Shown here one piece after another: positions 48,610 through 51,600 of a DNA stretch of 64,000 nt. The stretch lies in contig CDLV01000004.1 in assembly GCA_001244265.2 (NCBI GenBank), forward strand, positions 434,001 to 498,000, given 5' to 3'. The position numbers and the translations under genes were made by a program. Numbering within the stretch: the stretch's first letter is position 1; every line of letters starts with the position of its first letter. Under the pieces are notes generated by a model. The model searched no databases. It was given only the letters and a program-made list of their open reading frames with translations, and was not told the origin of the DNA. Source of the stretch: Microbotryum violaceum. Its lineage: Eukaryota.

Positions 48610-51600
48610 TGTTGTGGGAAATTAGTGGGGTCTGCGGTCCAGAGGGACTTATGGTCTTAGCAGTGGCGCGGGCGCGCGGGTGTTGTGCGGGGGACCGGCA
48701 GAGGCGGCTGGTTGTTTACATGAGATTGCGTCTTTTTGGCCTAGCTGTTTTTCTCTCTTCTCCACCACGCACTCGATATCACATCTCGCCTAGTCGCTCT
48801 GTTACAGTCGATTGACCTTTAGCGACCCACTATCTCACAATAGGTTAGTTGAAATACATCACCACGCACTCGATATCACATCTCGCCTAGTCGCTCTGTT
48901 ACAGTCGATTGACCTTTAGCGACCCACTATCTCACAATAGGTTAGTTGAAATACATCACCACGCACTCGATATCACATCTCGCCTAGTCGCTCTGTTACA
49001 GTCGATTGACCTTTAGCGACCCACTATCTCACAATAGGTCATCTATCGACGCCACGTAACTAGAGACGCTCCTACAACAACAGGTTATGAGTCCATCAGA
49101 GACCATTGCTCAGGAGTCTGGGGAGATCAAGATAGCCAAGCTCGGCAAGGATAATTACGAGCTGTGGTCGATTCGAGTCGAGGCGTACCTCGAGAGCAAG
49201 GGCTATGCGAGCGTCCTCGAGCATGGGCATGTGCGGCCCTCCGACGTCAGCCTGGCTGAGTGGAGGACCATGCACGGTCTGGATGCCTCGGTCACCGACA
49301 CCCAAGTGGTCGTGAACTTGCAGAAGAAGGACAGAAGCGCCCGTGCCCTGATCATTCAATGTATCGACGATGCGAATCTCAAGATGGTCAAGAGCAAGAC
49401 GCTCTCCGCCAAGGATATCTGGGATAAGCTTCGCCAGCATCATGAAGGGAATGCCAAGCCTTTCAAGATTCGAACGTTGTTGATGGAACTCTCGAATGCG
49501 AAGTACGACGAAGACGAGAATATGGGCGAGTTCTTGAAGAGCATGATCGACAAGGCGGATCAACTCGACAATCTCGGTCAGAAGTTTGGGGACAAGGCGA
49601 TGATCGCGTACATCCTCCAAGCATTACCCCCGTCGTACGAGATGCTGAAGCAAGCAATTCGCCTCGGTGAAAATCGATCGGTCGACCATGTCATCAATCG
49701 CCTTACAGACGAGTACACGGAACGGAAGTTGTCGGGCAAGTTCGACAAACTCTTGAAGAACGCGGGAGCGTTAGCCGTTCAAAGCACGCAAGCAAGTCGT
49801 GACCCGAACTGTGTCTGTAGGGGATGCAAGGGGAAGGGTCATTTCGCGATGGACCCTGAATGTCCCAAGTACGACGCCAAGAAGAACCACGGTCGTGCGC
49901 GCAACCGCAACAAAAAAAAGAAGCAGGACTCGAAGGAATCTGCGGATTCGAACGAGTTGGCTAAATTTGCGTTGACGGTCAAGTCTCTCGATGAGAGCCA
50001 TTCGCTTCAAGACAATGTCGCGAATAGGGTGTCGCAGCTTAACCAGGGTGAGATCTGGACACTGGACACAGGTGCTAGCCAGCACTATGTTGGAGACGCC
50101 AGTCTGCTCTCCAATCGTCAAAAGTGGAAACCTGAAGGTTCAGACAGCGAGCGGACAGGTAGTACACTGCGATACGTATGGGATGGTACGTTTCAAGTTG
50201 AAGAGTGGGGCATCGCTCTCACTTGCGAACGTGTATCATCTCCCGGGTGCGCCCGTGAACCTCATCTCGACTCGAGCTCTATTCAAATCGGGAGCCAAGT
50301 GCGGATGGGAAGATGGCAAGGATGTCATGACGATCACCTATCAAGGAGTCATCTTGGCGAAGACGCTCAGTGGTACCGGTTATGCGCTCGACTTTACGCG
50401 CATTGTCGAGGATCAAGCTCATGTCGCAACCCGTGCGACAGTGGGAGCGCCTTTGATGGAGTGGCATCGTAGCTACGGGCATGTGCCCGTGAGCTCAATC
50501 ATGGAGCTCGTCAAGTCAGGCGCTGTCGAGGGATTAGTTCTCACCGATGAGAAGGTCCACAACTGCGAGCCCTGCATCAGTTCCAAGTCTCGCGCATCGA
50601 AGTTCTCAGAGTTGGCTACTCAGGTCACCGACGTTCTTCAACGCGTATTCATGGACATCGGATTCGTCGCAGAAGATCAAGTTGATTTCCAAGGTCGAAA
50701 GGCATATCTGGCTATTGTAGACCAGTACTCGACTGCGAAGTGGACGTTCCCGTTGAAGACGAAGTCGGCTGAAGAAGTCACTCGAGCATGGATCGCATTT
50801 CGACAAGGAGTTGAAAAAATGACTGGTCGGAAAATCAAGCGCGTGCGTACGGACAATGGTACCGAATTCACAAACAAGCTCATTGGCGCGGATTTCCAAA
50901 GTCAAGGTATCCTTCATGAGACCTCTGCACCATACACCCCGCAACAGAATGGAACAGTAGAACGCTTCAATGGCTCGTTGATGGCGATCGTTCATGCGGT
51001 CCTTGCAGCCTCCAAGCTGTCATGGAAGTATTGGTCGTATGCGTTGGCGTACGCCACATTTGTTGCCAACCGAATTCTACACGCCAAGTTGGAGGGTAAA
51101 ACCGCCTATGAAGTATTCTATGGCAAGAAACCCAAGGTCTCGCACTTTCGTCCATTTGGATCAACCGTGTATGCGCAAGTTCCGAAGTCAAAGCAATCCA
51201 AACTTGAATCGACTTCGATTAAGGGGATATTCATCGGATACGATAGCGAGTATAACTATTGTGTGCTCGTTGATCCCGACTCGGACCACAAAGTCATTGT
51301 GACGCGCGACATTTCGGTCTTGGAACACAAATCAGAGCAGGTTGGTGTACCGGAGGTCACAACTCTGCCTGTGGGGCCAGATGAAGAGAAGGGTCCTGTC
51401 AATAACGACGAGATAGTTGTTGACGAACTTTGGGATCAGGTAGACGGTGAGCAGATGCCACCTGCCCGTCAGAACCGTCCTCGATGGGAGTATGGAGATC
51501 CCGCCGTTAAGGGAAGGAACCCTGGAAGATATGAGGAGATCAACGCTAACAACGAGATTCCACACCGTACTCGTAGTCAACGTCGGGACACGGAGCAACA

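Follow-up and report, generated by a model that had tools for sequence, protein, structure and literature searches.

Results

Two copia elements with long terminal repeats of unequal length

A 64,000-nt stretch of contig CDLV01000004.1 from Microbotryum violaceum (positions 434,001 to 498,000 of assembly GCA_001244265.2), here called the window, was found to be rich in transposons, with a GC content near 0.53-0.55, and to contain two nearly identical Ty1/copia retrotransposons that lie inverted to each other. Their long terminal repeats (LTRs), designated family B, differ in the number of copies of an intron-like tandem unit, and this array is the subject of the present work. All coordinates are positions in the window, and counts over both strands refer to 128,000 positions. 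LTR borders were obtained from BLAST and alignment and were then checked base by base. The two elements comprise the following features.

48610-53483, plus strand: element 1, made up of LTR1, an internal region and LTR2
49083-53195, plus strand: internal region of element 1, copia gag-pol, with one frame break more than element 2
49083-49094, plus strand: primer-binding site GGTTATGAGTCC, directly 3' of LTR1, with the gag ATG inside it
60881-56114, minus strand: element 2, made up of LTR4, an internal region and LTR3
56393-60506, minus strand: internal region of element 2, with copia gag at 59117-60529 and pol at 56377-59613
56109-56113, with its partner at 60882-60886: target-site duplication GGAAT of element 2, from a sequence check

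Both elements are classed as Ty1/copia, as they carry the features that define this group. The pol frame of element 2 (1078 aa) contains RVT_2 (1.5e-56, residues 592-816) with rve, gag_pre-integrs and Pol_BBD upstream of it, and the gag frame (470 aa) contains Retrotran_gag_2 (6.5e-27), Pfam matches having been obtained for two of the four proteins scanned. A copia-type gag is thus accompanied by a pol with the order protease-integrase-reverse transcriptase (RVT_2). The ends are also of the expected kind: the family B LTRs run from TGTTG to AACA, a primer-binding site follows the 5' LTR, and a purine tract, ..GTGGGAG, precedes the 3' LTR. The primer-binding site GGTTATGAGTCC is one that we take to match initiator tRNA-Met in its anticodon stem-loop. 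It also contains the gag start codon (GGTTATGAG..), at 49083-49094 in the window and likewise at 1425-1436 of L001, a metagenome contig with a related element that is described below, so that the entire 5' untranslated region is LTR sequence.

Element 2 is flanked by its target-site duplication, and no matching duplication was found at the flanks of element 1. The 24 runs considered for comparison, 20 of which contain part of the window, consist of contigs, not raw reads, and four of them (X8, X17, X19 and X3) were aligned to the window. Contigs from X3 and X8 represent the empty site: they join both flanks of element 2 with a single GGAAT, 29 of 30 and 26 of 30 letters agreeing when compared by eye. 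Element 2 thus inserted recently and is polymorphic, being absent from some genomes.

Structure of the array in the family B LTRs

Tandem Repeats Finder reported a repeat with a period of 97 nt at 48763-49039 (2.9 copies, 100% matches, no indels), and shorter runs at 60550-60730 (1.9 copies, 98% matches) and 61687-61863 (1.8 copies, 95%), the last of these in a diverged LTR considered in the next section. Together with the base-by-base check, this established that the family B LTRs of 473, 375, 279 and 288 nt contain three, two, one and one copies, respectively, of an 81-nt block, the same counts that a preliminary description of the window had given. Every additional block is preceded by a 16-nt spacer, with which it forms a 97-nt unit that begins with GT and ends with AG. 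The parts of the four LTRs are as follows.

48610-49082, plus strand: LTR1, 5' LTR of element 1, 473 nt, with three blocks
48610-48762, plus strand: U3-like part of LTR1, ending in a CT-rich tract
48763-48843, plus strand: first 81-nt block of LTR1, directly after the CT-rich tract and ending ..AATAG, presumed to be an R-like first exon
48844-48940, plus strand: unit 1 of LTR1, 97 nt, in which a 16-nt spacer that begins GTTAGT precedes a further block that ends ..AATAG
48941-49037, plus strand: unit 2 of LTR1, 97 nt, identical to unit 1
49038-49082, plus strand: tail of LTR1, 45 nt, U5-like, ending ..ACA
53196-53483, plus strand: LTR2, 3' LTR of element 1, 288 nt, with one block at 53355-53438 and about 91% identical to the other LTRs
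56114-56392, minus strand: LTR3, 3' LTR of element 2, 279 nt, with one block at 56239-56159 (T variant)
60507-60881, minus strand: LTR4, 5' LTR of element 2, 375 nt, with a block and one unit
60729-60649, 60648-60552 and 60551-60507, minus strand: block 1 (T variant), GT..AG unit and tail of LTR4, from the base-by-base check

Alignment of the three similar LTRs also bore out that the lengths of 473, 375 and 279 nt are spaced by one unit, the steps of 98 and 96 nt each departing from 97 nt by one base of a run of G. Precise removal of the GT..AG units had been proposed to turn the long LTR into the short one. This holds for layout and length and not for the exact sequence, as LTR1 without its two units differs from LTR3 by substitutions at four positions.

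In an array of n blocks there are n-1 spacers, and LTR2 and LTR3, with one block each, contain no trace of a spacer. Two possible origins of the array were rejected. A simple tandem duplication, or minisatellite, does not fit because the array is not made of whole units, LTR2 and LTR3 having a single block without spacer. A template-jump duplication, in which the spacer would represent the flank of a single block, does not fit either, as neither the upstream nor the downstream flank resembles the spacer.

A single-block LTR beside pol also exists in an independent data set. In run X8, an 843-nt contig was found in which the 3' end of pol runs through an LTR with one block.

The same layout in other copia lineages

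The block-spacer-block arrangement was present in three further sequences, two of them in the window and one in the metagenome contig L001. Those in the window are listed here.

19909-24880, minus strand: second copia element, presumed to be family A, with integrase-type domains and the target-site duplication ACTCC
19909-20124 and 24665-24880, minus strand: LTRs of family A, identical 216-nt copies
61498-61907 (end approximate), plus strand: B', a diverged LTR akin to family B, with blocks at 61687-61764 and 61784-61861 and no adjoining internal region

The family A LTR consists, in order, of a CT-rich tract, a 24-nt block ending in CAG, a 45-nt spacer that starts with GTACGT and ends with AACTG, a second identical block and a 9-nt tail, after which the primer-binding-site-like sequence TGGTAGCG follows. 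The claim that family B shares its layout with a family of unrelated sequence was thus confirmed in the copia element at 19909-24880, whose pol is 28% identical to that of family B. In the copy at 24665-24880 the long gag-pol frame extends open into the LTR spacer, which has an ATG in frame with it.

L001 is closer to family B (47% identity in pol) and carries an intact gag-pol frame of 1452 aa. Its LTR has a CT-rich tract, a 42-nt block ending in TAG, a 20-nt spacer starting with GTTAGT, an identical second block and an 11-nt tail, followed by a primer-binding site of the same type as in family B. Positions 1-1425 of this contig, which comprise the 3' end of pol and the LTR, are repeated at 4707-6131 through an assembly path across LTR-internal-LTR; its two LTR copies are therefore not independent observations. 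In B', the spacer starts with GTTAGT and the period of 97 nt is that of family B; across family B and B' the block measures 81-83 nt and the spacer 14-16 nt.

In all of these LTRs the junction of block and spacer reads YAG|GTNNGT, with ..TAG|GTTAGT in B, B' and L001 and ..CAG|GTACGT in A. The unit sizes are 97 nt (B), 69 nt (A) and 62 nt (L001).

The search for relatives started from 57 pattern matches in the metagenome scan, which were reduced to two loci, L001 and L002, the latter ending before the repeat, and from 48 pattern matches in genome contigs, which were reduced to L003, without an LTR on its contig, and L004, of 769 nt. Viral contigs yielded three weak 41-residue matches among 88 pattern matches. 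A scan of the collections for the primer-binding-site pattern returned six stretches, none of which had a CT tract or a duplicated block when inspected by eye, and these were judged to be chance matches. No additional copia LTR came out of the genome-contig, viral-contig and primer-binding-site scans. The corresponding scan of the window for other primer-binding sites returned only the known family A and family B sites.

The reading frames of L001 and family B differ in one further respect: L001 has a single continuous frame, whereas gag and pol are in split frames in family B. The change of frame falls within about 17 nt in both copies, at about 59457-59474 in element 2 and about 50115-50132 in element 1, and either programmed frameshifting or a defect common to both copies could account for it. 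A further break in the frame of element 1 lies near 51672.

Intron-like and leader-like features of the unit

Introns of the short fungal type are typically about 50-100 nt long. With this type as a guide, a donor-like sequence was found at each block/spacer junction, AG|GTTAGT in B, B' and L001 and AG|GTACGT in A, and a 3' YAG was present in all lineages. Motifs resembling branch sites, judged by a general consensus and not one derived from introns of the host, were CTGAC about 24 nt before the terminal AG in A, and TTGAC and CTCAC within the B block. The presumed exons lack ATG in three of three families, and the presumed intron contains ATG in two of three, in frame with gag in A and out of frame in L001.

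A CT-rich tract precedes the block in B, B', A and L001, and in L001 a TATA-like sequence, TTTTATAG, is situated about 36 nt before the block. In fungi, CT tracts precede transcription start sites.

Comparison of B with B' gave identities of 65% in U3, 76% in the block and 65% in the tail, and the best-conserved parts of these LTRs were the last 14 bases of the block, the spacer (15/16) and the first 10 bases of the tail. Within one LTR of an intact element the copies of the block are identical (83/83, 24/24 and 42/42), and between lineages the blocks differ widely. This pattern points to concerted copying or to selection acting on the repeated block.

Searches for a structured RNA added little. 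Rfam gave no match over 48500-49200, and the predicted fold of the leader RNA was uninformative (z = -1.32), with 7 of 100 shuffled sequences folding equally well or better.

Ambiguity of the cut and chance estimates

The copies in family B share 83 nt, and a unit can accordingly be deleted in 84 equivalent phases, of which GT..AG is one; the contig alignment itself flags the cut as ambiguous ('GT..AG (cut +13)', both = 68). AGGT occurs 436 times in the 128,000 positions, and at this frequency about 25% of B-type arrays and 8% of A-type arrays would contain one or more GT..AG phases by chance. Because of the 84 equivalent phases, the existence of a GT..AG phase means little when taken alone.

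The longer motif AGGTNNGT is far rarer, with 22 occurrences on both strands, at least six of which are block/spacer junctions. The chance of finding it among the equivalent phases is about 0.01 for B (84 phases) and about 0.003 for A (25 phases), and the joint chance of a consensus donor at the junction in the unrelated families A and B is about 3e-5. Since the motif recurs at the junction across lineages, the GT..AG layout carries weight beyond the ambiguity of phase.

The one-block LTR of element 2 bears weakly on the phase. LTR3 has kept the T variant found in the first block of LTR4, an outcome that only 16 of about 85 phases would produce. This favours the GT..AG phase only if LTR3 had a parent resembling LTR4, which is doubtful given the mosaic structure described next.

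Mosaic structure of the copies

When the internal regions at 49083-53195 and 60506-56393 were compared, the first 3192 nt contained a single indel, against 23 differences over the last 920 nt, the border between the two segments being sharp and near 52275. Other runs show letters like those of element 1 at several of the 23 differing sites. The tail of LTR3 has three substitutions relative to LTR1 and LTR4. In LTR2, the first 85 nt or so match LTR1, and the remainder is diverged, with a 9-nt insertion and mostly CG to TG/CA changes, which suggests methylation-linked or RIP-like (repeat-induced point mutation) decay of an older copy. A second primer-binding-site-like sequence, GGTTATGAGCC, follows LTR2 and gives way to unrelated DNA; the 2.6 kb after LTR2 (53484-56113) showed no similarity to the pol of family B or to the gag-pol of L001 at E <= 1. 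LTR2 is a probable hybrid, its other partner being the 5' LTR of an older element.

The mosaic internal regions, the changes in the LTR3 tail and the hybrid LTR2 show the copies to be recombinants, the product of template switching between co-packaged RNAs or, alternatively, of gene conversion between inverted neighbours. Because of this recombination the comparison of 5' with 3' LTRs is confounded, only one clean 5'/3' pair being available.

Other elements in the window

A Helitron-like element and its surroundings, together with two further repeats or retroelements, were also recognized.

28994-37144: Helitron-like element, with an 893-aa frame containing Helitron_like_N (9e-52) and a PIF1 helicase (4e-40)
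28626-28666: 41-nt fragment that matches the beginning of the family B LTR at 100% identity, isolated beside the Helitron region
16417-16876: 191-nt tandem array, 2.4 copies, 84% matches, with short inverted GC-rich repeats at its flanks
40196-45245, plus strand: string of frames, one with an RVT_1 reverse transcriptase domain (6.6e-18), representing another, non-copia retroelement

The Helitron-like element contains direct repeats of 1.5 kb at a distance of 5.85 kb, with part of a third copy present in tandem.

Discussion

The reading that we favour, to which we give about even confidence, is that the array forms a conserved intron-like leader module whose copy number would be set by homology-guided switching between identical blocks. 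The block would start at the transcription start site, and it would then be at once the first exon and, in the manner of R, the stretch of homology used in minus-strand transfer. The 3' part of the unit would duplicate the presumed first exon just upstream of the donor. During reverse transcription the nascent DNA, or else recombining DNA, could anneal to another of the identical blocks. A unit would be added if it landed one block farther downstream, and an early jump or crossover would remove one and give the one-block form. Splicing of the leader from GT to AG is a likely additional route to a one-block leader that is not required for the observed counts, and it could be the reason for which the module is retained. 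On sequence grounds the unit is to be regarded as intron-like and not as a demonstrated intron.

Several points weigh against this reading. Its transcription start, poly(A) site and splicing are predictions from the sequence. Only three lineages are available, and the junction motif may be common to B and L001 by descent, so that the only clearly independent comparison of this motif is that of A with B. In L001, the branch-site candidates are weak and match only loosely. Between B and B' the whole 16-nt spacer is kept beyond its first six bases, which is more than the interior of a plain intron would need. The sole X8 contig that crosses the array has a single block, and one-block copies or transcripts therefore exist. 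Finally, the presence of two units' worth of blocks in one LTR of element 2 and one in the other is not predicted by any simple one-cycle model, and the three substitutions in the tail of LTR3, within a mosaic element, remain unexplained.

Of the other explanations, an ordinary unstable tandem repeat in the LTR is the strongest, and we regard it as a real but lesser possibility. The repeat might be a duplicated promoter, enhancer or R segment that is not spliced, its GT..AG sequence being incidental or having another role, such as U1 binding or control of 3'-end formation, and its copy number could change by replication slippage, unequal exchange, gene conversion or template switching of reverse transcriptase. 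The 84 cut phases all give one product, and a bare AGGT would be met by chance in about a quarter of such arrays. Plain deletion between direct repeats also yields the same product, and the portions of a review that deal with such deletion describe it, when carried out by reverse transcriptase, as precise and frequent (PMC3187697). A mechanism of gain is needed for the three-unit LTR in any case, and the copies are mosaics; in addition, the inverted neighbours are about 3 kb apart, with their 3' LTRs facing each other, and are identical over about 3.2 kb, as local gene conversion would give. An unstable repeat leaves unexplained, however, the full donor consensus at the junction in the unrelated family A and the distant L001, the intron-like size of the units in all three lineages, and the persistence of block-spacer-block across diverged lineages although repeats are easily lost. 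Moreover, the one-block LTR is without spacer, so that simple duplication of a one-block ancestor would not give the array.

The preliminary description had attributed the number of units to spliced versus unspliced templates combined with the register of strand transfer. The second part of this proposal stood, a shift in register being coherent for one, two or three units. The first was not supported, as splicing only removes units and can yield neither the three-block LTR nor the two against one within element 2. In the textbook scheme of reverse transcription both LTRs of a new copy stem from one minus-strand LTR; spliced and unspliced templates consequently do not explain the difference inside element 2, and splicing predicts no difference between 5' and 3' LTRs. 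That unit number mainly records which form of the RNA was packaged, together with the transfer register, seems quite unlikely to us. In its favour are the donor and acceptor signals at the junctions, the T variant kept by LTR3, which fits the GT..AG phase, and the distribution of blocks, the LTRs adjoining the 3' end of pol (LTR2 and LTR3) having one block each and both 5' LTRs more than one, a pattern to which the X8 contig linking the 3' end of pol to a single-block LTR conforms. These arguments lose force because LTR3 differs from LTR4 at three tail positions in a diverged mosaic segment and need not derive from it, and because the hybrid nature of LTR2 leaves a single clean 5'/3' pair.

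Collapse or expansion of a perfect 97-nt repeat during assembly is highly improbable as the source of the counts: assemblers do miscount copies that are 100% identical, as those of LTR1 are, and the counts rest on assembled contigs, but three different counts occur in one window in LTRs that are each otherwise consistent, element 2 has its target-site duplication, an independent X8 contig crosses a one-block LTR, and LTRs with two blocks are found also in B', in both family A LTRs and in L001.

A more specific form of the leader module may be envisaged, which we consider unlikely, in which a true intron lies wholly inside the LTR leader, its 3' end copies exon 1, and it is regained after splicing by strand transfer onto this intronic copy. 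Strong-stop DNA, the complement of exon 1 and the tail, would land on the intronic exon 1 at the 3' end of the unspliced RNA, and the spacer and the upstream block would then be recopied, so that a spliced element would still pass the intron on. The two blocks would be recopied from each other in each cycle, which would keep them identical, and shifts of register would give one, two or three units.

Relation to known systems

Tandem repeats of variable number in LTRs, and the loss of repeats in reverse transcription, are already well known. The U3 region of murine leukaemia viruses contains variable enhancer repeats, and plant elements such as Tnt1 have comparable repeats. These share with the present array the head-to-tail arrangement within an LTR and the variation in copy number. 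They differ in being located upstream of the transcription start and in being duplicated in whole numbers, whereas the array described here has n blocks and n-1 spacers and is situated directly after a CT-rich tract and at 9-45 nt from the primer-binding site; where it lies with respect to the start is a prediction from sequence features.

Some retroviruses have splice donors in R or in the leader, and copia-type elements produce spliced subgenomic RNAs. A 5' splice site in the RNA leader of a retroelement is therefore common to retroviral leader donors and to the module proposed here. In the known cases the acceptor is far downstream in the body of the element, whereas here both putative sites would be inside the LTR, and, unlike in retroviral and copia splicing, a copy of the presumed first exon forms the 3' end of the presumed intron. 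The model of Rogers derives introns from tandem duplication of an exon segment containing AGGT and has in common with the array that excision of a unit, from GT to AG, brings back exactly the one-unit sequence. It differs in that the one-block LTR is without spacer, so that the array is no simple duplicate of it, and in that the context is a retrotransposon LTR and not a host exon.

For retroviral direct repeats, the relevant portions of the review cited above state that reverse transcriptases delete such repeats precisely and often, and that longer repeats are lost more often (PMC3187697). The loss of a repeat together with the intervening sequence, precise, dependent on the length of homology and frequent in each cycle, corresponds to what template switching would do here. 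The same process is given there as underlying recombination between co-packaged RNAs, which fits the mosaic elements in the window (PMC3187697). In comparison with the retroviral repeats as presented in those portions, the repeat in family B, family A and L001 is conserved across lineages, has a donor consensus at the end of the homology and has been retained, not purged (PMC3187697). In the copia element Tto1, a minimal redundancy (R) region for the first strand transfer has been defined (PMC3061985), and a short stretch repeated at both RNA ends that guides minus-strand transfer is a feature it shares with the block as interpreted here. The parts of that work concerned with this region define a single R, and in them no internal second copy of R and no splice signals are described (PMC3061985). 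The subject of a paper on introners is whole elements that act as introns of the host, which is a different matter (PMC12130899).

A search of the literature, outside of which supplementary files lay, found no description of an intron inside an LTR, and no account of an LTR-internal intron-like unit whose 3' part repeats the sequence before the donor and which is conserved across copia lineages.

Retroelements face a lasting conflict, as host-like splicing aids expression and at the same time removes sequence from the RNA that is to be reverse-copied. Retroviruses meet this conflict by exporting and packaging unspliced RNA. If the intron-like reading is true, an intron in the leader, internal to the LTR and provided with a second homology for strand transfer, would represent a different solution, and regain of the intron by this route would explain how the blocks stay identical within an LTR while the lineages diverge. 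If splicing is absent, the conserved order of block, donor, spacer and block in three copia lineages would still constitute an unexplained cis-element beside the primer-binding site.

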